Of a stretch of DNA of 64,000 bases, positions 2,822-30,669 are shown piece by piece. The stretch is taken from NCBI GenBank assembly GCA_029857955.1, contig JAOUFY010000006.1:1390-65389 (forward strand), in the 5' to 3' direction. Each line of letters opens with the position of its first letter. Position 1 is the first letter of the stretch. A program made the position numbers and the translations under genes. The stretch comes from Spirochaetia bacterium (GTDB lineage: Bacteria > Spirochaetota > Leptospiria > Turneriellales > JAOUFE01). The notes beneath the pieces are model-generated. The model was not told the DNA's origin. It worked only from the letters and a program-made list of their open reading frames with translations, and did not search any database.

Positions 2822-4144
2822 ATGATGAAAGAAAAAATTAAAAATTTGATGTCTCGAAAAACCATAATTGCGATTTTTACGACAATTATGTCAGGGTATA
2901 TTGCAAATTGTGCAGTTGCTGCAAAAAATCCAGCCGCCAGCGCTGCTGCTGCGGCAACACATGTTTACAACAGCACAACCTCACGCGGAGATCTGGTAAC
3001 ATACACGGTCAACGGGTCAAGTCTCGTTACCGACTGGAGTGTCACGGATAACGTGGGAGCGATTAACTTTATCTGGAACATACAGACTACCTGCGGAGCC
3101 CAAAATGCCACTTATGGATATCGCACCTGTACCATTAACTCCGTAAATTGCAGCAACGGCGCATTAACATGCCCGGCATTCACCCCCCCCATTGGAGCAG
3201 CCATTGATTTGATGGAAATTCCGGGAACAGCTGTGATCGCGCATGTACCGGCGAGCTTTGCAGGAGGGGTCGAAGGCGTAACGGCTAGAGAAGAACTGCA
3301 TGCAGGCTTTGTTTCTGGCGGATGCCCTGCCAACATAAGCGGCGATTACACATTCATCAGGGCTGGCCGGGCAAACGCTACTTACGGAGCCACAGATTTA
3401 TTTGGCATGTATCGTACGGATGCCGCATTTAACAGTGTCAGTCACGCTGAATTTGGCATGACAACAGCAGGTACCGCTGCCATAAGTACTGCTGTCGACT
3501 CCTATACCACGAACCCTGCAAACCTGACCGGCGCTGAAACGCTTACAGGTACTACATGTAACAATGGCGTTTTCACCAGAACCATCGGAGGCAATACATT
3601 ACGCATCAACGCAACAGCTGGCGGTACATTTATTCTCGACATGCCGGCAGGTCAGGGAGGTTTAATTTCGTTTAAAACTACCAATGCGGCTGTAATTGGA
3701 GATCTTGCCAGTCGAAACTGGTGGGGAATTGTTTTCCCTGACAATGGCGCGCCTGATTTGGTAAGTCTGACATCGGGCACTCTGGCTTCCAATTCAGTTT
3801 CTATGAGCGGACAGACATCAAGCGGCGGCACAATTACAAACGTACCGGTTCAGCCTGCTTCTGATGCGGCCCTGGCAACCAAATTTGCAGCTCCAGCGGC
3901 TTATACCTCATCTGGCAATGCGCTTGTGACGAACTATGCAGCGCCGAGCAACATTCCAGGGTTGATGCAGATTAGCCAGGCTCCTGATAACAATATCGTA
4001 GCCATTGCCTCAAAAGTAGGCAGCCAGGTTATGATGTTTGGCACAGTATATAATCTTCGTGATGGCCTGGGAGCAGTTTGTACAGCAGGCGCTGGCGGTT
4101 GTATCCCACGCAATGCCGGCAACTTTATTCTTTTCTCACATTGA
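2822..4144 (+). CDS. Secreted or lipoprotein of unknown function, Ala/Gly/Thr-rich with about 10 Cys
   Basis: SD AAGGAG lies upstream of the ATG at 2822. It has an N-terminal signal peptide with a possible lipobox (SGYIANC). I recognise no catalytic motif. It is visibly more G+C-rich than its neighbours and is followed by a strong terminator. Confidence 0.6.
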   Translation: MMKEKIKNLMSRKTIIAIFTTIMSGYIANCAVAAKNPAASAAAAATHVYNSTTSRGDLVTYTVNGSSLVTDWSVTDNVGAINFIWNIQTTCGAQNATYGYRTCTINSVNCSNGALTCPAFTPPIGAAIDLMEIPGTAVIAHVPASFAGGVEGVTAREELHAGFVSGGCPANISGDYTFIRAGRANATYGATDLFGMYRTDAAFNSVSHAEFGMTTAGTAAISTAVDSYTTNPANLTGAETLTGTTCNNGVFTRTIGGNTLRINATAGGTFILDMPAGQGGLISFKTTNAAVIGDLASRNWWGIVFPDNGAPDLVSLTSGTLASNSVSMSGQTSSGGTITNVPVQPASDAALATKFAAPAAYTSSGNALVTNYAAPSNIPGLMQISQAPDNNIVAIASKVGSQVMMFGTVYNLRDGLGAVCTAGAGGCIPRNAGNFILFSH

Positions 4145-6810: not shown

Positions 6811-7701
6811 GTGGATAATCTAAAAATATTGAAAGAAATGAAAGTCAGTTGTTACACTTTTATTCGAAACGGCGAAGTGCTCGGTTATCCTTTTATTGAA
6901 AGTATAAAATCAGCCCTGCCCATTTGCGATGAATTTGTCATTGCCGCAGGTAAAGGGGATGATCATACACGAAAAATGATCGAAAAAATTGGAAATAAAA
7001 AAATACGAATTATCGATACAATCTGGAATGAGGGGCAAAAAACCGGCGGCTTTGTATACGCTCAACAAAAAATGATCGCACAATACAATTGTACAGGCGA
7101 CTGGGCTTTTTATCTGGAGGGCGATGAGGTTTTACATGAAAAAGATCTAGATACAATTTACAACGCCATGAAAGAAAATTTAAATGATGAAAGAGTTGAA
7201 GCCCTGGCATTTCATTATCATCATTTTTACGGAAATCCACAGACAATTATAAATTCACCGGCATGGTGTCGTTCAGGGGTACGAATTATTAAAAACAACC
7301 TTAGAGCAATTGCGATGGACGGCCTTCATTTTACAGTCATGATCAACCATAAAAATGGAAGATGGCCAAGGGGTAAAAAAATCAATGCCGCCATTTACCA
7401 CTATGGGTATGTTCGTTCCATTTTAAAATTACAGGAAAAACTTAACAAAGTCAGTAAATACTGGGGAACAAAAGTCGATCATCATTCCTACGGCGATATC
7501 GACCCTGAAGTTTTACATCCATTTTCCGGTACTCACCCTGCCATTATGAAAAAATGGCTTCAAAAAGATGCTCAAAAAGAATTCACACTGAACCCTGACT
7601 ATAAAATAACCAAACGGGAAAAAAGACATCGTTTTTACCTGAAGCTTGAAAAATGGTTTAATCTGGATTTAAATAAGAAACATTATAAAACAGTAAAATA
7701 A
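6811..7701 (+). CDS. Probable glycosyltransferase (GT-A / family 2-like)
   Basis: The N-terminal pattern CYTFIRNGEVLGYPFIESIKSALPICDEFVIAAG and an acidic YLEGDEV motif resemble GT2-like proteins. The ATG at 6838 (MKVSCY) is a more likely start than the GTG at 6811. Confidence 0.45.
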   Translation: MDNLKILKEMKVSCYTFIRNGEVLGYPFIESIKSALPICDEFVIAAGKGDDHTRKMIEKIGNKKIRIIDTIWNEGQKTGGFVYAQQKMIAQYNCTGDWAFYLEGDEVLHEKDLDTIYNAMKENLNDERVEALAFHYHHFYGNPQTIINSPAWCRSGVRIIKNNLRAIAMDGLHFTVMINHKNGRWPRGKKINAAIYHYGYVRSILKLQEKLNKVSKYWGTKVDHHSYGDIDPEVLHPFSGTHPAIMKKWLQKDAQKEFTLNPDYKITKREKRHRFYLKLEKWFNLDLNKKHYKTVK

Positions 7702-9658: not shown

Positions 9659-9917
9659 AGAAGGTTTACCTTTCGAGATGGATTGGATTGATTTCTCTTC
9701 ATCTCTTTTTACTTTGAGGATGAATCGGCGACCTTACTCATTGTTAAAACAAAAAAATAGATTTTAAAAGCAGCGACCTCTACTGTAACATCCCTTTTGC
9801 CATTTTATCCTTCATTCCCTGCAGCATTGACCATGAAAATTGAGGACTTACTTTAGAATTTCCCCATTAGTGTTAAAAGTCATTGCCCGCTGAATTGTAT
9901 TTTTATTTTCTACCCAT

Positions 9918-10320
9918 GAGCAGGGGACGGCCGCGCGGCCCCACAGCCATTTATGGCATTTAGGGAGTGAGGAAAGTCGGACACCACGGAATCAGAAGGC
10001 CAGAGGAATCTGGATTTATGGAAAGTGTAGCAGAAAGTATACCGCCCTTGAGGTCTCACGATCTTTCGGGTAAGGGTGAAAAGGCGGGGTAAGAGCCCAC
10101 CGCATGGTTTGAGAAAACGATGGCAAGACAAACCCCCTTCGGTGCAATTTCAAGCAGCTCCCGGATGATTCCCCATGCAAATTGCCGCGAAAGCGATAAT
10201 TGCAAGGGAGCGGGTAGAAAGCAAAGCAGGCGATCGTATAATATCGCTTCAAGATAAATGGTCGTCGCCCCCGCATCACGAAAGTGATGCGGGGGAACAG
10301 AATCCGGCTTACACCTGCTC
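9918..10320 (+). ncRNA. rnpB: RNase P RNA, bacterial type A
   Basis: Universal signatures on the + strand: GAGGAAAGUC (9969..9978), GGGUAAGGGUGAAAAGGCGGGGUAAGAGCCCACCG (10068..10102) and ACAGAAUCCGGCUUA (10297..10311). P1 pairs GAGCAGG (9918..9924) with CCUGCUC (10314..10320). A T6 run follows. Confidence 0.92.
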
Positions 10321-10346
10321 TTTTTTAAAGAAAACGTTATTTGTTT

Positions 10347-22500: not shown

Positions 22501-24177
22501 TTGCCGCGATGGGGGTTATTCACACATTGCATGGTGATCAAAATGCGATCCATTTTGCCGGTTTTTTTTATGCTGACCTGCCTGGGTTTGCAGTGTTCAT
22601 CACCCGATTCTATAAATAAAAATGTAACTTCATCTATTGAATATATCGAAGATGTAAACGGAGCTTTTTCGTTTCAGGATATTCAAAATACAGAGGTAAG
22701 GCAGTGGCAAAAAGTGGGCCAGGATTCATTTAACTTCAAGTTTTCCAAATCTGTTTTTTGGCTGAAAATCGACCTTGGCAATTATCTTTCCATTTCTCAA
22801 AACCGAATGTCATATCTCGTTTTTGCCTGGAAGGCTCTGGATTCGGTTGAACTTTTCTATGTGAACAGGCAGGGCAAAATCGAAACGCAAATAGCCGGCG
22901 ACATGCATCCAAAATCAACGTGGTCATTGCCCGAGGCGCACTTTCCCGCATTTTCTATTTTGCCACGGGACAATCCCCGGCATATTTACTATGTGCGTCT
23001 TGATTCATTGTCGATAAAAAATTTTCCGGTTTTTTACAAGTCGGATATCGCCTACCTGCACGATCTAAAAGCCGAAATTATGGTAATCATGGTATTTAAG
23101 TCCGTTATTTTTGTTCTTCTTTTTTTCGCCGGTTTTCTCTTCATCATGTCGCGCGATATAAACTATCTTTTATACCTTGCTTATTTGCTTTCTATCAGTC
23201 TTGCCCAGGACGTTACCTTTGGCAATGCCTTTGATTTATTTTGGCCGAACTCAACCTGGTGGCAGAATCGCGCAGGAATGACTTTTATTGGCGGCCAGCT
23301 TTTATTTTCCCTTTTGTTTGTCAGACGCCTGCTTGATTTTCAACGCTTTGTACCGTTGGCCGATAATCTATCAAAGAGTCTGGCCGTTGTGTGCGCGATC
23401 TCCATTCCGCTTACGTTGACAGATATTCCGATCTCGATATTTTCGCATTTATACACCTCTATATACTGGATTGTTATTTTGTCATTTTTCGGCATCGGGA
23501 TTTATCTTCTTTCGAGAACCGTTCGCTATGTCCGTTTTTTTGTCATCGGCTGGGGTATATTTTTCTTTTTTGCCATTTTTCAGGTTTTATATTTTTCTTA
23601 CATTCTGCCCTACCATCCGTTTTACGTGTATGCGCCCATTCTGGCCATTCCGGTCGATATACTTTTCCTGTTCATGAGTATCTGGGAAAAACAGCAAGAA
23701 ATTCAAGTAAGGCGAATGTTGCAGGTCGAAAAAAAAATGCAGGCATTGCATCCGGCACATCATCCGTTGCAGGAAAAACAGGAAAGCGTAAACTCCGCGC
23801 CGGTTACCCGTTATCAAAAATCTTCCCTGGTCGATGTCGATGTGGAGCTGGTTCTAAGGGAGCTCGATATTCTTGTGCGCCAGGAAAAAATTTATCTCGT
23901 AGAAGGTTTGCGGCTGCCAGAACTGAGCCGTCTGCTGCGGCTCAACCGTACCCAGTTATCGGAACTGCTGAACACGCGCTTTGGAATGACATTCTCGGTC
24001 TACATCAACCAACTTCGAATTGAAGAGGCGAAAAGGCAACTGCTTTCCCAGCCAGATAAAAGAATCATCGACATAGCCTTTGACACGGGTTTTGGCTCGA
24101 AGGCCTCTTTTTGCTCGGTATTTCAAAACCTCACCGGCGTCAGCGCCAGCGATTACCGCAACAAGAAAACTCCATGA
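22501..24177 (+). CDS. Membrane-bound one-component regulator: 7TMR-DISM-type sensor fused to an AraC-family HTH
   Basis: Signal or lipobox-like start MRSILPVFFMLTCLGLQC (the ATG at 22543 is the likelier start). Next comes an extracytoplasmic DISMED2-like domain (FSFQDIQN...FSKSVFWLKIDL), then seven TM helices, then a C-terminal AraC HTH (LSRLLRLNRTQLSELL...IIDIAFDTGFGSKASFCSVFQNLTGVSASDYR). Confidence 0.7.
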   Translation: MPRWGLFTHCMVIKMRSILPVFFMLTCLGLQCSSPDSINKNVTSSIEYIEDVNGAFSFQDIQNTEVRQWQKVGQDSFNFKFSKSVFWLKIDLGNYLSISQNRMSYLVFAWKALDSVELFYVNRQGKIETQIAGDMHPKSTWSLPEAHFPAFSILPRDNPRHIYYVRLDSLSIKNFPVFYKSDIAYLHDLKAEIMVIMVFKSVIFVLLFFAGFLFIMSRDINYLLYLAYLLSISLAQDVTFGNAFDLFWPNSTWWQNRAGMTFIGGQLLFSLLFVRRLLDFQRFVPLADNLSKSLAVVCAISIPLTLTDIPISIFSHLYTSIYWIVILSFFGIGIYLLSRTVRYVRFFVIGWGIFFFFAIFQVLYFSYILPYHPFYVYAPILAIPVDILFLFMSIWEKQQEIQVRRMLQVEKKMQALHPAHHPLQEKQESVNSAPVTRYQKSSLVDVDVELVLRELDILVRQEKIYLVEGLRLPELSRLLRLNRTQLSELLNTRFGMTFSVYINQLRIEEAKRQLLSQPDKRIIDIAFDTGFGSKASFCSVFQNLTGVSASDYRNKKTP

Positions 24178-24329
24178 ATGAATGAAACTTTTTTAAAGGG
24201 GCGGTTGTCTTCATCGAACGAAGGTGTAAAACGCCAATGCACCTGGTATAGGCGAAGCCTTCTGAACCCCATTGTGCATGATTCAAACGAAATTTTCCGT
24301 AAAAATCGCCATTTTTTGTAAAAAAAGAA

Positions 24330-24351
24330 GTCCAGAATGATCATTCTGGAC
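24330..24351 (-). terminator. Orphan intrinsic terminator oriented for minus-strand transcription
   Basis: A perfect 22-nt palindrome GTCCAGAATGA/TCATTCTGGAC. On the minus strand it is followed by TTCTTTTTTTAC. On the plus strand no T-tract follows. No annotated minus-strand gene lies upstream of it. Confidence 0.55.
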
Positions 24352-24494
24352 GACAAACGCCAATTTCTATGCTATAAAAATTCATGAAGACGCGATATGT
24401 TCGGGGGTAGCGCAAAACGGCGGTTCATTTCCGCAGGGAACGGTCGCGATCGTTCCTTACGACATAACCCGCCGGTTGAAGCGAGGGGGCAAAC

Positions 24495-25616
24495 TTGCCC
24501 CCTTTTAAACAGGAGAAAATGAAACGTAACAAAATACTGCTTTATCTGATAACAGTCTTGTGCCTGTCGATATATTCGGCGTTGTACGCCGATGATATGC
24601 AAAAGGTAATTATTTTACCGTTTAAAAATATCGATAAAAATCCAAACTACGAATATCTCGAAGCCAGTATTACCGACTCGATTCGAGAAAATTTAAAAAC
24701 AAAATTTGTTTTTGCCGAAACCGCCGAACGAGACTGGAAATTGATTTCCAAAAAGAATTTTCTCTATGACAATGAATGCTACACGGCGACCTACGGCATG
24801 ACTCTGGGTCTTTTTGCCAACCAGGACGTAATCATCAATGGCGGATTTACGATCAAACAAGGCGGCAAAGATCAGGACGCCGTTAGTACGACCGTTCGCA
24901 TCATCAGCATTACCGAAAAAAAAATTATTTCCGAGTTTGTCATCGACATACCGGCCAACAGCGAATTGTTTAAGGCCATTGGAGAAGTAGCCGACAAGGC
25001 CGCCAAAGAAGCTTCCAAAGCCCTGCCCAACAAGGACGATTGGGAGAAAACCCGCGGTAAAAAAAAGGTAGAAAAAAAAATTTTCTCCAATGTTGCTCTG
25101 GGCATTCGGGGCGGCGGCGCGTTTTATCTCGGCGGCTGGGCAGATCAGTTCAGCACGAAATTACCGGCTTTTGGTTTTTCACTTAGAGCCAACATGCCGA
25201 TGATTGCCGACCGACTATTTGTTTCTGCCTTGTATAATAATTTCCAGCACGAATTTTCTAAAAGCGCGAAAAATTACCTCGCAAACGTGGGATTGGCCCT
25301 GCTCACCGCCAATCATCTTGTCGGCGGCAATGTCGGGTATGATTTTTTCATTAAAGATATTTTCTTGCTATCGCCTAAACTGGGCGGCGGAGCTATTTTT
25401 CAAACAAGCCAGATCAGCGGAGTGGTATCCCAAACCGTGAACAACAATATTCCCTGGGTCGGGATAGGCCTTGATTTTACCTGGCTTGCCACCGATTCGC
25501 TGCGCCTGGTTCTCGATGTAACTTTTAACGCAGAATTTGAAAAATCAACGAACACGGGAACAATCACGACGACATTTTTTCCCATGGCTATGCTGGGGAT
25601 GAATATAAATTTTTAA
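24495..25616 (+). CDS. Outer-membrane protein: signal peptide, TolB-N/CsgG-like periplasmic domain and C-terminal beta-barrel-like domain
   Basis: The probable true start is the ATG at 24519 (MKRNKILLYL), preceded by AGGAG. The N-terminal domain reads VIILPFKNIDKNPNYEYLEASITDSIRENL. The last ~180 aa are alternating-hydrophobic strands ending in the aromatic terminus ...AMLGMNINF. Confidence 0.6.
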   Translation: MPPFKQEKMKRNKILLYLITVLCLSIYSALYADDMQKVIILPFKNIDKNPNYEYLEASITDSIRENLKTKFVFAETAERDWKLISKKNFLYDNECYTATYGMTLGLFANQDVIINGGFTIKQGGKDQDAVSTTVRIISITEKKIISEFVIDIPANSELFKAIGEVADKAAKEASKALPNKDDWEKTRGKKKVEKKIFSNVALGIRGGGAFYLGGWADQFSTKLPAFGFSLRANMPMIADRLFVSALYNNFQHEFSKSAKNYLANVGLALLTANHLVGGNVGYDFFIKDIFLLSPKLGGGAIFQTSQISGVVSQTVNNNIPWVGIGLDFTWLATDSLRLVLDVTFNAEFEKSTNTGTITTTFFPMAMLGMNINF

Positions 25617-25620
25617 TTTT

Positions 25621-25650
25621 CATAGCCACGGGTTTAAACCCGTGGCTATG
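25621..25650. repeat. Perfect 30-nt palindrome between the OMP gene and the giant lipoprotein gene
   Basis: CATAGCCACGGGTTT/AAACCCGTGGCTATG, with no T-tract on either side. Confidence 0.85.
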
Positions 25651-25692
25651 AAAAAGGGAGAATAACCCGTGGCTATGAAAAAAGGAGAATAA
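25639..25692 (+). repeat. 27-bp tandem duplication carrying a duplicated Shine-Dalgarno and mini-ORF
   Basis: Unit 1 is CCCGTGGCTATGAAAAAGGGAGAATAA (25639..25665). Unit 2 is CCCGTGGCTATGAAAAAAGGAGAATAA (25666..25692), with 1 mismatch. Each unit contains ATG AAA AAR GGA GAA TAA. The ATG of the 1254-aa gene is at 25694. Confidence 0.85.
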
Positions 25693-25693
25693 A

Positions 25694-28600
25694 ATGAATG
25701 CAAGAACAAAAATATTTTATGCAGGGTTGTCAATGCTGGGTGTGATATTGGCCGGTTGCGGCGGAAAAAATACGTCCACGGGAGATTTACTCAGCGGCAG
25801 TACCCTGCCTGCTCTGAGCGTCTCATCTGTCAGCGCCCGCAATTTAACTACGCTGGATATTGAGTTTAACGATGCGCTCGAACCAGTTTCTGCCGCGACT
25901 CTTTCGAACTATGCTATAAAAAACAACGCTGGCGTTGCTGTCAATATTTCGGCGGTACATGTCGACGCTGCGAATAATAAAAAAGTAAATCTCACAACGG
26001 CTTACCTTAATGAGACCGTCGCCTATAGCCTCACCGTTTACAATGTTTCGGGAACCGGCGCCACAAGACCGATACCCGTCGCAGGCGTTTCTACTTCATT
26101 TACCGGCTTGGGCAGCAACTCTCCCCAGTTTGGAATTCAGTCAGTGGCCACATTGGACGCTTTTCATGTCAGGGTTCAATTTAATTACAACGTAGACCCG
26201 GTTTCTGGTACCACCTTGTCCAATTACGGTATTACATCGGTATCCAACGGCACGCCGGTAAACGTGACAGCGGCAGTCATCAACGCTTTGAACGCAGCCA
26301 CAGTAGATTTAACTACCGGCGACTTAACCGTGTTTACCCAGTACACGCTGAAAGTAACCAACGTATCGACCACGGCAACGGCTCTACCCATCAGCTCGAC
26401 CGGCATCAGTCTTGTTTTTTCGGGCGTTGCAGGTTCATTGGCCGATTCAACCCCGCCTAATATTTTGTCGCCGGCCAACGGTAGCGTGACAGGTCTTTCG
26501 GTTGCTTTGGTATGGACATCTAAATCAGGCGCGACATCGTACACGGTAGATGTAGCCACCGATGCTGGGTTTACTTTGCCCATTACCGGAAGCCCGTTTA
26601 CCGTAACAGCGCCATCAACCACATACAGCCTTACACTTGCCACAGGAAATCGTTATTACTGGCGCGTTCGCGCCAATACTACGGCTTTAGGACAATACGG
26701 TTCAGGCTCTTTCGACGCGCTCGATGCCGCTATTTATGTCTACTGCGCCAGCGGAACCACCTGTAGCGATACTGGAGCCATCGGTCATCAGTCCGCTCCT
26801 TTTCAAACGATTATGGGCGGCGCTGCCGAAGCCGCACGTCTGGGTAAAAAAACCGTCAAGGTCGCCTCGCGCGGTGGCTTAAGCGCTTATGCCGAAACTT
26901 TGATTTTGCGCGACGGGGTAAGCTTAAGCGGCGGTTACAATGCCGCCACATGGATACAAGATAAGGTGAATAACCGGACTGCCGTTTCTTCGGCGATTAC
27001 CTATGTGGTCTATGGCCAAAACATTGCCATGAATACGGTCGTGGAGGGTTTTAATTTTCAAAATATTTCGACCGGCCAGATCAACAGTTATGGCATGAAA
27101 CTCGACAACTGTTTAAACCAGCTGACGATACAAGACAATACCATCAACAGCGGAACAGGCACAACGACTTCAGCCGCCATTTATAACAACGGCTCGTTTC
27201 CGAATATTCTCGGTAACACTATGAATGCGGGCGGCGGAGGTACCTCGTATGGAGTTTATAACAACATAGGCTCCATCACCACACTGTCGAACAACACCAT
27301 CAATGGCGGCAGCGGTACAACCTCGTATGGAATTTTTAATAATGATACTATAACCACGATGTCGGGCAATGCTGTCAACGGTGGTAGCGGAACAGGCAAC
27401 ACTTATGGAGTTTTCAACGGCGGCTCTATCACCACGTTCTCGAACAACTCCATAACCGGCGGCAGCGGTTCTACGGCATCTTATGGCGCATATCTTCCCG
27501 CCGCAAGTTCCATCGCCACATTGACGAACAACACGTTGAATGGTGGCAGCGGGGCAAATTCCTATGGGGTTTATACCGCCAGTACGACGGCCCTTGTATT
27601 TTCCAATAATACCATTCATGGCGGTAGCGGCTCTGCAAGTTCCCGCGGAATTTATAATGCTGCGGGAAGTTCCATTGCATTGACCGGCAACATCATAACC
27701 GCTGGCAGCGGCGCTGGCATCTCTTTTGGAGTCGACAATGCCGCAACCGCTACGCTGAGTCTTTCATCTGGAAACACTTTTAACGGCGGCGGCGCTACGA
27801 CCTCGTATGGAGTAAATAATCCTGCGACAGCGATTCTCTCAGGTCTTACAAATAACATCTTTAACGGAGACAGCGCTACCACCTTTTATGGTATTTACAA
27901 TTTAGCCAACAACACCATTCCCACATTGTCGAACAACGTCTTTAACGGCGGCAGTGGTGATTTCTATGGAATTTATAATAAACCATTATCAGGCGCAACG
28001 AATTCTATCACCACAGTTTCTAATAACACGTTTAACGGCGGCACCGGAACAAATTTCTATGGAGTTTATAATTTTTCCTTGGCGGGAGTTACGGCCGTTA
28101 TCGGCACATTGACGTTCAACACGTTTAACGGCGGCAGCCAAACAGTAAACTCTTATGGAATTTCTAATTTTAATGGTGGTAGTACAATCACCACCCTGTC
28201 TAACAACATCATCCATGTCGGCAGTGGGGCAACTATTTATGGAATATTAAATTCTGCTGGCGGAATTGGTACATTGTCGAACAACACCATTACCGGTGGC
28301 AGCGGAACAGGAACCTCTTATGGTTTATCGAATACTGGTGGTACAATCGCCACCTTGTCGAACAATACGATCAACGGCGGCAGCGGGGCAACGGCCTATG
28401 GAATATCGAATACTGGTGCAATCAACACCATGTCGAACAACACCATCCATGCCGGCAGCGGCACAAACTCTTATGGAGTTTTCAACAGTGCCGGCTCGAT
28501 CGCCACGTTCTCGAACAACTCCATTAACGGCGGCAGCGGCACAAACTCTTATGGAGTTTGGAACAACAACACGATCACCATGTTCTCGAACAACACCATT

Positions 28601-29458
28601 AACGGCGGTAGCGGGGCAATAGCCTATGGAATCTATATTTTGGGAGTTCCATCGCCAAAGAACAATGTAATTTTTGTATCCGGTAAAAACAACACACGCT
28701 TTGCGTTTTATGAGGGTAATAACGTAACCAGCCCGGCGAACATTCTGAACAATAATATTTTTGACAGCGGCAGCGTAGGTAAATTTTATTTTTACGCGGA
28801 TAAACCTGGGGCTATCAGCACCGGAACAACCTGCATCAATGCGGCGGGGGGTCTTGATACTTCACGAAATTGTTACAGCCTCATTAGCGATGTCAACAAT
28901 GCAGCAGTAACTACCGGGGGGGCGGCAACCACCGCACAAGGGAATGTGAATATCGACAACACCGCAGGCCAGCTTTTTGTCAACGCACCTCTGATGCAAG
29001 ATACTACGAAGGACGGTGTTGACCCCAACGCCATCTACGATGGCGCCACCACAAGCATCGAAGTGGGCGCTTGCGATTTGCTCAACGCTCGGTATGTTCT
29101 AAACGAGTTTATCGAGTACAATGACGATACTATTGCGCGGCAAATCACGGGCGTAAATTGTACGGCAACGACATCGATCATTAGCTTTAGTCCGGCGCTG
29201 GCAGCAGCCAGCACTGCGGGCGTGCAAATCACGCTCTGGGGCGCCAATGGCGCGAACATGATCGAAAATTACAGGTTAAACGCGGCGACGGCCAATACCT
29301 GCAATGCGCTTTTTGGCGGATTGAACCTGGGCGCTGGAATCACTGACTTTGACGGCATTACCAGGACGGCGAATATCACCGGTCTACCCTGTACCATGAC
29401 TGCGCCGTCGAGTACCCTTGGTCAGGGTTGGTCGATGGGCGCGTTTGAAAGGGATTGA
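25694..29458 (+). CDS. Giant surface-type lipoprotein: two Ig-like domains, an FN3-like domain and a right-handed beta-helix with ~19 degenerate repeats
   Basis: Canonical lipobox VILAGCGG. Two SbsA/Big-like modules are present (LTTLDIEFNDALEPVSAATLSNYAI... and FHVRVQFNYNVDPVSGTTLSNYGI...). An FN3-like module follows (LVWTSKSGATSYTVDVATD...YYWRVRA), then a DUF1565-like helix start (SAPFQTIMGGAAEAARLGKKTVKVASRG). Repeats of the form SNNTINGGSGxxSYGxxN follow. The C-terminal end reads DFDGITRT...GWSMGAFE, as in beta-helix (choice-of-anchor-Q-like) proteins. Confidence 0.7.
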   Translation: MNARTKIFYAGLSMLGVILAGCGGKNTSTGDLLSGSTLPALSVSSVSARNLTTLDIEFNDALEPVSAATLSNYAIKNNAGVAVNISAVHVDAANNKKVNLTTAYLNETVAYSLTVYNVSGTGATRPIPVAGVSTSFTGLGSNSPQFGIQSVATLDAFHVRVQFNYNVDPVSGTTLSNYGITSVSNGTPVNVTAAVINALNAATVDLTTGDLTVFTQYTLKVTNVSTTATALPISSTGISLVFSGVAGSLADSTPPNILSPANGSVTGLSVALVWTSKSGATSYTVDVATDAGFTLPITGSPFTVTAPSTTYSLTLATGNRYYWRVRANTTALGQYGSGSFDALDAAIYVYCASGTTCSDTGAIGHQSAPFQTIMGGAAEAARLGKKTVKVASRGGLSAYAETLILRDGVSLSGGYNAATWIQDKVNNRTAVSSAITYVVYGQNIAMNTVVEGFNFQNISTGQINSYGMKLDNCLNQLTIQDNTINSGTGTTTSAAIYNNGSFPNILGNTMNAGGGGTSYGVYNNIGSITTLSNNTINGGSGTTSYGIFNNDTITTMSGNAVNGGSGTGNTYGVFNGGSITTFSNNSITGGSGSTASYGAYLPAASSIATLTNNTLNGGSGANSYGVYTASTTALVFSNNTIHGGSGSASSRGIYNAAGSSIALTGNIITAGSGAGISFGVDNAATATLSLSSGNTFNGGGATTSYGVNNPATAILSGLTNNIFNGDSATTFYGIYNLANNTIPTLSNNVFNGGSGDFYGIYNKPLSGATNSITTVSNNTFNGGTGTNFYGVYNFSLAGVTAVIGTLTFNTFNGGSQTVNSYGISNFNGGSTITTLSNNIIHVGSGATIYGILNSAGGIGTLSNNTITGGSGTGTSYGLSNTGGTIATLSNNTINGGSGATAYGISNTGAINTMSNNTIHAGSGTNSYGVFNSAGSIATFSNNSINGGSGTNSYGVWNNNTITMFSNNTINGGSGAIAYGIYILGVPSPKNNVIFVSGKNNTRFAFYEGNNVTSPANILNNNIFDSGSVGKFYFYADKPGAISTGTTCINAAGGLDTSRNCYSLISDVNNAAVTTGGAATTAQGNVNIDNTAGQLFVNAPLMQDTTKDGVDPNAIYDGATTSIEVGACDLLNARYVLNEFIEYNDDTIARQITGVNCTATTSIISFSPALAAASTAGVQITLWGANGANMIENYRLNAATANTCNALFGGLNLGAGITDFDGITRTANITGLPCTMTAPSSTLGQGWSMGAFERD
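27131..28640 (+). repeat. In-frame tandem array of ~19 degenerate 25-27-codon repeats inside the giant lipoprotein gene
   Basis: By hand count there are 19 units of (T/F/M)-(L/F)-S-N-N-(T/S)-I-x-G-G-S-G-x-x-x-Y-G-(V/I)-x-N. The spacing of the TCG(Ser) codons at 28277, 28358, 28433, 28511 and 28586 is 81, 75, 78 and 75 bp. Confidence 0.85.
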
Positions 29459-29469
29459 TCTGATTTGTA

Positions 29470-29618
29470 GGGTGATGTCTATAAACAAGAAATTTGCCAC
29501 GGATGGACACGGATAAACACGGATTAAAGATTCATAAAGGCATCTATCTGTATTTATCCGTGTTTATCCAGCGAAGCGGGTGGCCATTTTTTTCGGATTT
29601 TACTTTTTAGACAGCCCC
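29470..29618. repeat. MITE-like repeat, family 1
   Basis: The termini are GGGTGATGTCTATAAAC (left) and TACTTTTTAGACAGCCCC (right, 29601..29618). The right terminus matches ACTTTTTAGACAGCCCC at 20392..20408. The internal 14-bp perfect inverted repeat is GGATAAACACGGAT (29511..29524) / ATCCGTGTTTATCC (29556..29569). Confidence 0.75.
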
Positions 29619-30175: not shown

Positions 30176-30669
30176 TTACTTTCTGGTTAATGCTGATAAA
30201 TCTTCCAGTAAGGCCTGAAGGTCTTCTTCATGCATAACTTCATCCTGCAATATTTGCACAACCAGGTTGTAGGTTACCGGATCTTTAAACCCGACCTCTT
30301 GAATCAGTTGATTATAGACCGTAATGGCACATTGTTCGCCTCGAATATTTTGCTCAAGTATACTGCGTACATAGGAATCCGAAGGCGCTTCATATCCGCA
30401 TGAGCTCCATTTAAACCATTCCCTGGGATCCTGCAAGAGAACTCCGCCCAACTGAACGATTCTGGAGGTTATCATTTCTGCATGTCGCAGTTCATCGGCG
30501 GCGTGTTGCACCAACTCTGCAATAACGGCATCTTTCATGGGGCCAGAGACAACCTTGGAGCCAAGCCAATACTGATAATATGCGAGCCATTCGTCGGCAA
30601 AGCCTTCGTGAGCAACTCGATAACCCGTTCAAGATTTTCCCCTACAATTTCGCGTCCTTTCGTTCCCAT
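30176..30669 (-). pseudogene. Dps-like (DPSL) / ferritin-like di-iron protein interrupted by a 1-nt frameshift
   Basis: ORF 30176..30538 encodes ...HAADELRHAEMITSRIVQLGG...GEQCAITVYNQL...DPVTYNLVVQILQDEVMHEEDL. Upstream, from the ATG at 30669, a second frame reads MGTKGREIVGENLERVIELLTKA and then runs out of frame. Adding one T to GCTTTGCC (A3 run on + strand, 30599..30601) restores ...KAFADEWLAYYQYWLGSKVVSGPMKDAV..., giving ~164 aa. Confidence 0.75.

Follow-up and report, generated by a model that had tools for sequence, protein, structure and literature searches.

A conserved, modular pairing of a small outer-membrane protein with giant lipoproteins in uncultured Leptospirales-like spirochaetes

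The locus comprises a sensor-regulator, a small outer-membrane protein and a giant lipoprotein

The stretch of spirochaete DNA analysed here (64,000 nucleotides (nt), referred to as the window) carries on its + strand a gene for a small outer-membrane protein (OMP), followed after a spacer of 77 nt (25617-25693) by a co-oriented gene for a giant lipoprotein. A previous reading of the letters and open reading frames (ORFs), referred to as the sequence-only reading, had proposed that the two genes form a dedicated surface-display module in which the barrel of the first protein exports or anchors the second. By comparing homologues, gene neighbourhoods and structural models, we found that the gene pair is an undescribed, conserved and modular OMP-lipoprotein unit of uncultured Leptospirales-like spirochaetes, which we call the cassette. 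In the window it belongs to a three-gene unit composed of a 7TMR-DISM/AraC sensor-regulator, the small OMP and the giant lipoprotein, whose features are collected in Table 1. Related loci and proteins are designated below by L and P numbers, respectively.

The upstream regulator, which did not appear in the sequence-only reading, is part of this unit. It is the first gene both of the conserved unit and of a compositional island; similar regulators adjoin the cassettes of L003, L005/L006 and L038 (two copies), and in L040 a similar regulator lies 5.7 kb from the cassette. The G+C content at third codon positions (GC3) was 0.53 for the lipoprotein gene, 0.51 for the OMP gene and 0.49 for the regulator gene, compared to 0.27-0.34 for the flanking genes, coding for MetH, a sulfatase-family protein, a TPR protein and HslU. 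The big gene had already been noticed as richer in G+C than its flanks, and GC3 bore this out; the excess, however, extends to the OMP and the regulator, so that the island corresponds to the three-gene block 22501-29458. The G+C excess is genuine and goes beyond a mere amino-acid effect.

The ORF listing gave 373 amino acids (aa) at 24495-25616 (+) for the OMP and 1254 aa at 25694-29458 (+) for the lipoprotein. As called in a public protein collection (P0001), the OMP has 365 aa, and its start is probably the ATG at 24519, the listed TTG at 24495 being wrong, since an AGGAG precedes the ATG and the TTG falls within a G+C-rich hairpin.

Table 1. Features of the three-gene unit and its spacers (window coordinates; a slash marks a predicted cleavage site; AF2, AlphaFold2; HTH, helix-turn-helix; SPase I, signal peptidase I; FN3, fibronectin type III; TRF, Tandem Repeats Finder; pLDDT, predicted local distance difference test; dG, folding free energy).
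Feature	Position	Strand	Basis
Sensor-regulator: 7TMR-DISMED2, 7TMR-DISM_7TM and AraC-type HTH	22501..24177	+	Pfam E 4e-24, 5e-22, 7e-20
G+C-rich repeat element of ~90 nt in the regulator-OMP spacer	24403..24489	.	blastn copies in related loci
OMP signal peptide, SPase I type (MKRNKILLYLITVLCLSIYSALYA/DD)	24519..24590	+	sequence reading; AF2 helix, residues 2-22
OMP predicted periplasmic alpha/beta domain, aa 26-173, ending at the LPNKDD joint	24594..25037	+	AF2, Foldseek
OMP predicted 8-stranded barrel, class A, aa 190-365 and stop codon, ending LGMNINF	25086..25616	+	AF2, Foldseek
OMP-lipoprotein spacer with a perfect hairpin of 13-bp stem, CATAGCCACGGGT-TTAA-ACCCGTGGCTATG	25617..25693	+	RNA fold dG -35.9 kcal/mol, z -7.8
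Lipoprotein signal peptide, lipobox ILAG/C, Cys22	25694..25759	+	sequence reading
Post-cysteine tether, class A motif (GGKNTSTGDLLSGSTLPA)	25760..25813	+	comparison of partner lipoproteins
Two tandem modules of ~105 aa, aa ~38-141 and ~143-247	25805..26434	+	internal duplication
FN3 module, aa ~257-349	26462..26740	+	AF2 fragment residues 13-105, pLDDT 79-91; many Foldseek FN3 matches
Right-handed parallel beta-helix with capping helix, aa ~387-990	26852..28663	+	repeat table, TRF, AF2
Lipoprotein C-terminal ~265 aa, ending ...GQGWSMGAFERD, and stop codon	28664..29458	+	pLDDT <50
Imperfect long inverted repeat with a T7 run after it	29495..29591	+	RNA fold dG -48.6, z -5.2

The OMP models as a TolB-N-like domain followed by an 8-stranded barrel

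The AF2 model of the OMP, built with six homologues as input (mean pLDDT 73), begins with the signal helix, continues with an alpha/beta domain at residues 29-165 (pLDDT 82-90) and ends with eight long strands of 13-19 residues each between residues 190 and 364, the last residues of the protein being GMNINF. In the Protein Data Bank (PDB), Foldseek matches of the N-terminal domain (N-domain) were found in that of TolB (E 8e-8) and in the lipoprotein GNA1162, the comparison with 4hrv giving a target-normalised TM-score (TMt) of 0.59 and a root-mean-square deviation of 4.7 over 141 columns. The C-terminal half matched NspA, OmpA-TM, OprF-N, Ail, OmpX and OmpW with target-normalised TM-scores of 0.5-0.62, and the solved structures nearest to this barrel are all 8-stranded. 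The protein models as a TolB-N-like periplasmic domain joined to an OmpX/NspA-like barrel of eight strands, the smallest barrel class; no solved structure or paper describing this arrangement was found. The sequence-only reading, which had described the first gene of the pair as having a signal peptide, a TolB-N/CsgG-like domain and a barrel ending in GMNINF, was correct in this respect: AF2 and Foldseek gave a membrane barrel and not a soluble periplasmic protein.

At the sequence level nothing in the OMP exceeded the Pfam or NCBIfam thresholds, a weak DUF481 match in the C-terminal half (E 0.0015) lying below the cutoff, and the window protein had no Pfam match to PF13505, LpoB, FlgO or TolB_N. 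Among 60 relatives, OMP_b-brl (PF13505) was matched weakly by 21 (E >= 1.5e-5), OmpA_membrane by four, LpoB by two, FlgO by one and Autotransporter, again weakly, by three; the family profile gave only marginal barrel matches against PDB sequences (OprF, E 0.017). The N-domain is the best conserved part of the family, with nearly invariant residues N37, Y46, L47, E48, T52, Q102, D103, G108 and P170 (60 sequences), and it has a distant sequence link to 'VLPFxN...YFxDG' domains in TPR proteins (P0161). Of 96 members, 63 terminate in L or F and a further 24 in I, W, Y or M. Within the barrels of class A, the subfamily to which the window OMP belongs (see below), the best conserved elements are the hairpins beta1-L1 and beta5-L3-beta6, which are predicted to point outward, and such conservation of outward loops is unusual for an OMP.

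The lipoprotein carries a repetitive beta-helix passenger

The signal peptide of the lipoprotein reads MNARTKIFYAGLSMLGVILAG/C, i.e. VILAG/C, and lipidation of the cysteine is predicted from this sequence. The two tandem modules that follow the tether are 37% identical to each other (E 3e-18) and match no Pfam family; the two modules named in the sequence-only reading were confirmed as an internal duplication, while their Ig-like fold (SbsA/Big_5 type) is assumed. The AF2 model covered residues 245-1254. The FN3 module was matched only weakly by Pfam fn3 (E 0.038), and distant sequence relatives of this region in other phyla (Bacteroidota) carry the tails for secretion by T9SS (type IX secretion system; PF18962). 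The beta-helix consists of 19 repeats of ~26 aa each with the consensus SNNTINGGSGxxSYGxxN (TRF period 78 nt), and is modelled with three strands per rung and pLDDT >90 over its first half. Such a fold is typical of polysaccharide-active or adhesive proteins. The Foldseek matches of the beta-helix, comprising PL6 alginate lyase, GH87, phage tailspikes and AlgG, were weak (best E 4e-5, TM <0.3), and since these matches and those of the FN3 module are weak and generic, no enzymatic function was assigned. The last ~290 aa are modelled with low confidence, and the C-terminal part matches no Pfam family; its motif is common to the partners in L001, L003b, L009 and L040 and is conserved only among partners of the beta-helix class.

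Nothing in the lipoprotein exceeded the Pfam or NCBIfam thresholds, and these scans found no barrel, no T9SS C-terminal domain, no LPXTG and no Pmp family. The scans agreed with the sequence-only reading on the lack of a barrel, of a T9SS-type signal and of LPXTG, and the LAGC lipobox, the FN3-like module and the 19-repeat beta-helix were all borne out by the sequence, the AF2 model and the repeat table. The suggested resemblance of the repeats to those of Pmp-type passengers was not upheld, no Chlam_PMP match being obtained at Pfam E <= 0.1.

The OMP family is almost always encoded beside a lipoprotein gene

The OMP has few close homologues: five emerged from a word-indexed search, each of them from estuarine Spirochaetia metagenome-assembled genomes (MAGs) or metagenomes, and an exhaustive profile search of 1.84 billion representatives found 230 at E <= 1e-3, including 87 at E <= 1e-30, the family amounting, among 15 billion proteins clustered at 50% identity, to about 230 clusters. 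Nearly all members have 345-405 aa and an identical two-domain layout. They are labelled as Spirochaetia, Spirochaetota or Turneriella MAGs, with one 'Hydrogenedentota' MAG, and annotated as hypothetical, 'porin family protein' or 'TolB-like protein'; no Pfam or NCBIfam model exists for the family, and the cluster names of 30 representatives contained no cultured organism and no informative name.

Gene neighbourhoods were counted for 28 non-redundant OMP genes with usable flanks, from uncultured Spirochaetia and Turneriella MAGs. A directly adjacent and co-oriented lipoprotein gene was present at 24 of them, downstream of the OMP gene in 22 cases and upstream in two, with spacers ranging from an overlap to about 120 nt. 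The other four comprise one locus with a small gene between the two, one with a divergent lipoprotein gene and two without a lipoprotein gene, the 3′ end of the OMP gene being aberrant in one of the latter. Outside the pair, the genomic surroundings differ at every locus. Co-occurrence of the homologous pair, which had been chosen beforehand as the test of the proposed relationship, was thus found at high frequency, and this adjacency supports the earlier proposal that the two genes form a dedicated module. No description of this OMP-lipoprotein pairing was found in a literature search.

Several loci have features of their own. At L012 (9950-11080) a Turneriella OMP homologue has a non-barrel C-terminus and no partner gene, with YajQ and ArgJ downstream of it, and is probably a decayed cassette or the result of an assembly frameshift. 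On the L014 contig there are three OMP-family genes; other cassettes are found on further contigs from the same metagenomes, three of which bear the label of a single MAG (isolate 8_1_Oct_SF_Bin25 or locus-tag prefix OEZ13). In L003 the OMP gene and its partner lipoprotein gene share 210 nt at 97% identity (7107-7316 vs 9898-10107), corresponding to the upstream leader and the first ~33 codons (MIKTKLFKNLAHGYGSTTRILSLSKC...), and the two lipoprotein genes of this locus have 300 nt in common at 90% identity (3157-3456 vs 7198-7497); the shared stretch could derive from gene conversion or represent a shared regulatory leader. An N-terminal extension similar to that of L003 occurs in the partners of L018 and L023.

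The N-domain was also observed in fusion with cargo-like domains, in P0112 (Turneriella, 1148 aa, 19 cluster members), P0100 (629 aa) and P0152 (478 aa), the cargo-like parts being DUF1554 arrays, a repeat propeller and Ig-like repeats. Of the barrel, P0112 retains only two or three strands, and P0100 and P0152 none. With its N-domain, partial barrel and DUF1554 passenger, P0112 might be a Rosetta-stone fusion or equally a deletion product, and is a weak hint only.

A short motif after the lipid cysteine matches the class of the barrel

The passengers of the partner lipoproteins are mutually unrelated, comprising beta-helix, NHL, LVIVD with Big_5, Sortilin/BNR, DUF5122, DUF1554 and ELWxxDGT propeller types (Pfam), and reach sizes of up to 1975 aa. 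By contrast with this variety, the lipobox cysteine was present in all 22 tabulated partners, as well as in those of L029, L040, L042, L043 and L038, and every partner carries one of two motifs directly after the cysteine, here called the tether, which is the only element conserved among partners with different passengers. The class A tether has the form x-G-x-T-S-T-x-D-L-L-N/S-G(-x-F), reading C-GGKNTSTGDLLSG in the window, and the class B tether the form C-[QSR]-[NKQ]-x-P/A ... [VL]-x-F-[RQ].

Two subfamilies of barrels can be distinguished, equal in size (36 and 35 of 73 representatives) and ending in ...L-G-I-N-I-x-F in class A and in ...G-x-G-x-x-F-R-L in class B. BLAST found no link between them, and HHalign gave end-to-end homology with a probability of 98.5% at 16% identity. 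For all 12 class A cassettes and all 11 of class B, the class of the tether was that of the barrel (Fisher p 7e-7, uncorrected for shared ancestry). The rule was set on 22 partner lipoproteins and then checked on four new loci, all of which obey it (4/4); about 19 putative lipoproteins from the same loci but outside the cassettes showed no convincing tether motif and at most one loose regular-expression match. The class A tether is kept across beta-helix, LVIVD, Sortilin/BNR and Ig-type passengers, and also in L003 and L019, where the gene order is reversed. From these comparisons we infer that the element of the partner that confers specificity would be the post-cysteine tether, missed in the sequence-only reading, and not the passenger.

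We also compared the tether with the C-terminal beta-signal of the barrel (LLNGKF and INIKF in class A, VTFRN and LSFRL in class B); mimicry of the one by the other is not claimed, as with two classes the resemblance is indistinguishable from chance. A separate observation concerns the class B barrels, seen e.g. in L005, L012, L014b and P0096: their loop L3, which joins strands 5 and 6 and is predicted to face outward, holds an insertion of the form (K/T)-L-D-Y-S-x-L-S-x-L-P-V-D-x-x-G, whose conservation suggests a functional site on the outer face.

Both barrel and cargo differ past a conserved joint, a probable site of exchange

In the OMPs of L005 and L008, the N-domain is 65-70% identical to that of the window, several class A OMPs reaching only about 40%, whereas the barrel is only 14% identical to the window barrel and 42-55% identical to class B barrels. 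The OMPs carrying these class B barrels have in turn N-domains only ~40% identical. Window 22540-25039 and L005 2493-4954, which span regulator, spacer and OMP N-domain, align with 77% identity as DNA, the two regulators being 85% identical as proteins. The alignment stops abruptly at OMP codon ~174, which is the conserved LPNKDD joint, and past the joint L005 differs both in its barrel and in its cargo, here an Ig/NHL protein of 1975 aa whose tether is of class B. Because barrel and cargo are both replaced past the joint, the locus is divided into a constant head (regulator and N-domain) and an exchangeable barrel-plus-cargo module. The type of cargo tracks the barrel and not the N-domain. 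Recombination at the LPNK(D/E) joint would exchange such modules, while the regulator and the N-domain ahead of them stay constant. The window cassette and the swapped variant (L005-L007) were assembled from the same samples (ERZ27296335, SRR7132115); one community thus contains both, whether as paralogues or in separate strains.

Spacers, repeats and neighbouring features

In the spacer between regulator and OMP, the ~90-nt repeat precedes a hairpin (GGGGGCAA-ACTTGCCCCC), after which come a T-run and the ribosome-binding site of the OMP. Copies of the repeat were found by blastn at L005 1040-1129 and at two sites in L006, with 79-81% identity, and window 24395-25542 (spacer and OMP gene) aligns with L001 1904-3063. 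The repeat (GGGGTAGCG.AAAAC.GC ... AGCGAGGGGC) recurs in spacers of related genomes, including both the upstream and the OMP-cargo spacers of L001, and creates spurious ORF extensions such as 'RERSRPFPA'. This element fits a small dispersed repeat better than the hairpin that the sequence-only reading had flagged.

The latter, described as a repeat resembling a miniature inverted-repeat transposable element (MITE) after the big gene, is a single terminator-like inverted repeat. The repeat proper spans 29495-29570, and its identity as a MITE was rejected, since the window holds one copy of it and 46 related loci hold none; together with its T-run it is a probable terminator of the operon.

In the OMP-lipoprotein spacer, the segment 'CCCGTGGCTATGAAAAAGGAGAATAA' is duplicated and provides two Shine-Dalgarno copies. 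The duplication comprises 26 nt including the Shine-Dalgarno sequence, and the hairpin thus has two alternative right arms; in the minimum-energy fold the first Shine-Dalgarno copy is enclosed and the second is free. The hairpin could tune the ratio of OMP to lipoprotein. No terminator was called on the + strand of this spacer and no T-run follows the hairpin, so that read-through into the lipoprotein gene is expected. The corresponding spacers of homologous cassettes (20-120 nt) are unrelated in sequence. A scan for promoters and terminators gave signals no higher than the shuffled expectation.

Rfam had no match within the cassette region; its sole match in the window is a full-length bacterial RNase P RNA of class A at 9917-10325 (+) (RF00010, 188.5 bits). 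Past the terminator-like hairpin, beyond ~600 nt of A+T-rich non-coding DNA, lies a Dps/ferritin-like ORF of 120 aa at 30176-30538 (-), which covers profile positions 38-140 of 142 and may have a mis-set start or a truncated N-terminus.

Discussion

The cassette recalls several known systems, although the locus has none of the defining features of Slam (TPR with DUF560), autotransporters, TpsB, PorP/SprF and the lipoprotein export signal (LES). It resembles Slam of Proteobacteria, which has surface lipoproteins of the TbpB/fHbp type, in that an OMP with a periplasmic N-domain and a C-terminal barrel adjoins a lipoprotein gene, one type of OMP being combined with variable lipoproteins. In the case of Slam, gene adjacency was the clue to the discovery, with 52% of homologues adjoining a lipoprotein gene (PMC5449769). 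Slam, however, is a translocon that joins a TPR N-domain to a DUF560 barrel of 14 strands (PMC9090332), whereas the cassette OMP, unrelated to it in sequence, has an alpha/beta N-domain of TolB-N type and 8 strands. Pfam found no TPR, TPR_Slam or DUF560 match in the window protein, and DUF560 is not among the 25 Pfam families most matched by the 60 relatives. Moreover, Slam substrates share a C-terminal barrel domain, while the cassette partners share an N-terminal tether. Autotransporters (type V) differ by their 12-stranded beta-domain with a linker through the pore, the window OMP having no PF03797 match. TpsB of the TpsB/TpsA pairs is defined by an Omp85-type barrel of 16 strands with POTRA domains, and its cargo by a TPS domain; no POTRA, ShlB or TPS-domain match was found in either protein, and the OMP has only 365 aa.

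The closest match to the logic proposed below, closer than Slam, is offered by the PorP/SprF-like barrels of Bacteroidota (SprF-SprB, PorP-PorE-PG1035). There, a barrel encoded beside a giant T9SS type B cargo anchors this cargo and does not transport it, and PorE ties the barrel to the envelope (PMC9143113). The differences lie in another and larger barrel family, in a recognition domain at the C-terminus, in cargo that is not a lipoprotein and is transported by T9SS, and in the periplasmic module, which in the cassette is fused to the barrel; no match to T9SS-type families was found in the six proteins scanned from 20.6-33.7 kb of the window. Small 8-stranded barrels (NspA, OmpX, Ail, the N-domain of OmpA/OprF, OmpW) are similar in fold and size (Foldseek TMt 0.5-0.62), but none has an N-terminal TolB-like domain or an obligately adjacent lipoprotein gene, and OmpA has the reverse domain order with an OmpA_C domain. 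The fold of the N-domain is common to TolB-N, LpoB, FlgO and GNA1162 (DUF799), which are soluble or lipid-anchored periplasmic proteins, none of them fused to a barrel.

Two systems are comparable at the level of the tether. RcsF of Enterobacteria is a lipoprotein paired with OMP barrels through its N-terminal linker (PMC4942254); it is, however, a small sensor, is not encoded beside its OMPs and uses 16-stranded porins. In Bacteroidota the LES, a short motif right after the lipid cysteine, sets lipoprotein location (PMC5080379). The LES consists of K-(D/E)2 or Q-A-(D/E)2 at positions +2 to +5, which the window tether does not fit, and belongs to a general pathway, whereas the cassette motifs are longer, of other sequence, and co-vary with a dedicated neighbouring OMP.

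The reading that we favour, and to which we give about an even chance, is that the OMP is a cognate docking or sorting adaptor for the large lipoprotein, and not a pore, under the control of the 7TMR-DISM/AraC sensor. Following established pathways, both proteins would leave the cytoplasm through Sec; the OMP, which has a C-terminal hydrophobic/aromatic beta-signal, would be cleaved by SPase I and inserted by BAM, the machinery that assembles beta-barrels, and the lipoprotein would be lipidated at Cys22 by Lgt/LspA/Lnt and delivered to the outer membrane by Lol. The ~12-residue tether after the lipid cysteine (class A T-S-T-x-D-L-L-N/S-G) would then be recognised by the matching barrel subtype, giving a stable cognate complex in the outer membrane in which the barrel would act as anchor and specificity element and not as channel. 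As the N-domain is interchangeable between barrel types and best conserved, its binding partner is probably a factor that all cassettes share.

The passenger itself probably stands on the cell surface. This location is favoured by the extracellular-like repertoire and sizes of the passengers, the T9SS tails of the FN3 relatives, the 7TMR-DISMED2 sensor and the conserved outward hairpins. If so, a general machine must flip the passenger, since an 8-stranded barrel cannot. Candidates for this role are known from other bacteria, among them BAM-type machines. LptD-type machines are further candidates (bioRxiv 10.1101/2022.12.21.521298; PMC12065857). A more elaborate form of the adaptor reading, which we put forward tentatively and consider somewhat unlikely as a whole, is a modular surface-display system specific to spirochaetes, in which the cognate barrel reads the ~12-residue tether as an address and the TolB-N-like domain recruits the flipping or assembly machinery. 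The tether might then be added as an extra strand along the edge of the conserved and protruding beta5-L3-beta6 or beta1-L1 sheet, the OMP would be required for exposure and retention of cargoes of ~500 to 2000 aa, and barrel-plus-cargo shuffling would give populations a changeable surface.

Several points weigh against the adaptor reading. Every sequence of the family is metagenome-derived, and the functional statements rest on sequence, models and gene context. The confidence of the OMP model is moderate (pLDDT 73, with 46-87 by block in the barrel), and the model covers a class A barrel; the topology, with the N-domain in the periplasm and the passenger outside, is assumed from general OMP rules and from the domain repertoire. 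With effectively two deep classes only, the perfect match of tether and barrel is weaker than its p-value suggests, and L014 holds a possible discordant case, where a lipoprotein of 658 aa encoded upstream of a class B OMP has a tether resembling class A (CSSITTSNELLEANF). As for the swap, in the usual gene order the DNA for the barrel (3′ half of the OMP gene) is contiguous with the 5′ end of the cargo gene, so that one crossover would co-transfer both without any functional coupling. Finally, P0100 and P0152 join the N-domain to cargo-like beta-rich domains without a barrel, and this could mean that the cargo shares the compartment of the N-domain and works in the periplasm.

The same two fusions speak for a complex below the surface, in which the lipoprotein would remain on the periplasmic face of the membrane, bound to the TolB-N-like domain, in a structural or sensing complex that displays nothing, comparable to RcsF with the OmpA periplasmic domain, TolB-Pal, LpoB-PBP or FlgO-FlgP. 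Standard barrel topology places the sole soluble domain of the OMP in the periplasm, no other part is as conserved across the family, and RcsF attaches to OmpA at its periplasmic domain and not at the 8-stranded barrel (PMC7553776). We nevertheless regard this arrangement as unlikely: the cargo class tracks the barrel and not the N-domain, passengers composed of FN3, Big_5, NHL, LVIVD, BNR and PL/GH-like beta-helix modules (<=1975 aa) are typical of extracellular proteins, the Bacteroidota relatives of the FN3 region carry T9SS tails, and the predicted outward loops L1 and L3 are conserved. A small polysaccharide-utilisation unit, in which the lipoprotein, at the surface or in the periplasm, would bind or degrade glycans and the OMP would be a small channel for substrate or product or an unrelated co-regulated envelope protein, with no direct complex between them, recalls KdgM-type porins adjoining pectinases, with a carbohydrate-type 7TMR-DISM sensor controlling both. 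A 7TMR-DISMED2 sensor with AraC output does lie directly upstream and is conserved in several loci, the best structural matches of the beta-helix are PL6 alginate lyase, GH87 glucanase, AlgG and tailspike depolymerases, and OmpW-like barrels can pass small molecules. These Foldseek matches are weak, however, many of the heterogeneous passengers are not enzyme-like (NHL, LVIVD, DUF1554, Ig arrays), and the tether with its barrel-class match and the periplasmic TolB-N-like domain would be left unexplained, which makes this account very unlikely.

Export of the lipoprotein by the barrel in the manner of Slam or of a split autotransporter, as proposed in the sequence-only reading, has the advantage that the gene adjacency is tighter than that of Slam, that the lipoprotein has no translocator domain, and that the tether and barrel classes match. 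TolB-N/CsgG-like folds, moreover, form rings in some secretion systems, and the OMP could be imagined to act through oligomerisation or BAM-assisted co-assembly, with the tether threaded through the barrel. Against export of this kind stand the closed 8-stranded model, whose nearest structures are NspA, OmpA, OmpX, Ail and OmpW, and the lack of a TPR, DUF560, POTRA or autotransporter domain, weak Autotransporter matches occurring in only three of the 60 relatives. A passenger of 1232 aa with a folded beta-helix needs a genuine conduit, and 8-stranded barrels have no polypeptide-conducting lumen, a reason for which E. coli OmpA was rejected as a vehicle for RcsF (PMC7553776); we therefore hold that translocation by the OMP itself has a very slender chance. 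The absence of any functional relationship, with adjacency reflecting the ancestry of a duplicated DNA segment in one lineage, would be in line with the origin of all examples from one uncultured Spirochaetota group and with classes that are deep lineages. Adjacency, however, survives divergence of the N-domain to ~37-40% identity, replacement of the passenger, inversion of the gene order and varied contexts, and by these neighbourhood data this extremely improbable reading is close to refuted.

The placement of lipoproteins on the surface of spirochaetes and other diderm bacteria is only partly understood, and the cassette makes the question testable. The locus defines an OMP family of fixed architecture that stands almost obligately beside a lipoprotein gene, and it yields a testable hypothesis of address and receptor, in which a short post-cysteine address is matched to the barrel subtype. 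It also provides an annotation rule for 'hypothetical' giant lipoproteins in Leptospirales-like MAGs, and the swap of barrel plus cargo at a conserved joint is a clean example of how a modular cell-surface repertoire evolves. Should the complex be periplasmic only, it would still be a new OMP-lipoprotein partnership built on a TolB-N-like domain. If surface display is true, the cassette would represent a new and genetically compact route of lipoproteins to the surface in a phylum where such routes are largely unknown, and would serve as a compact two-part handle for displaying very large passengers.

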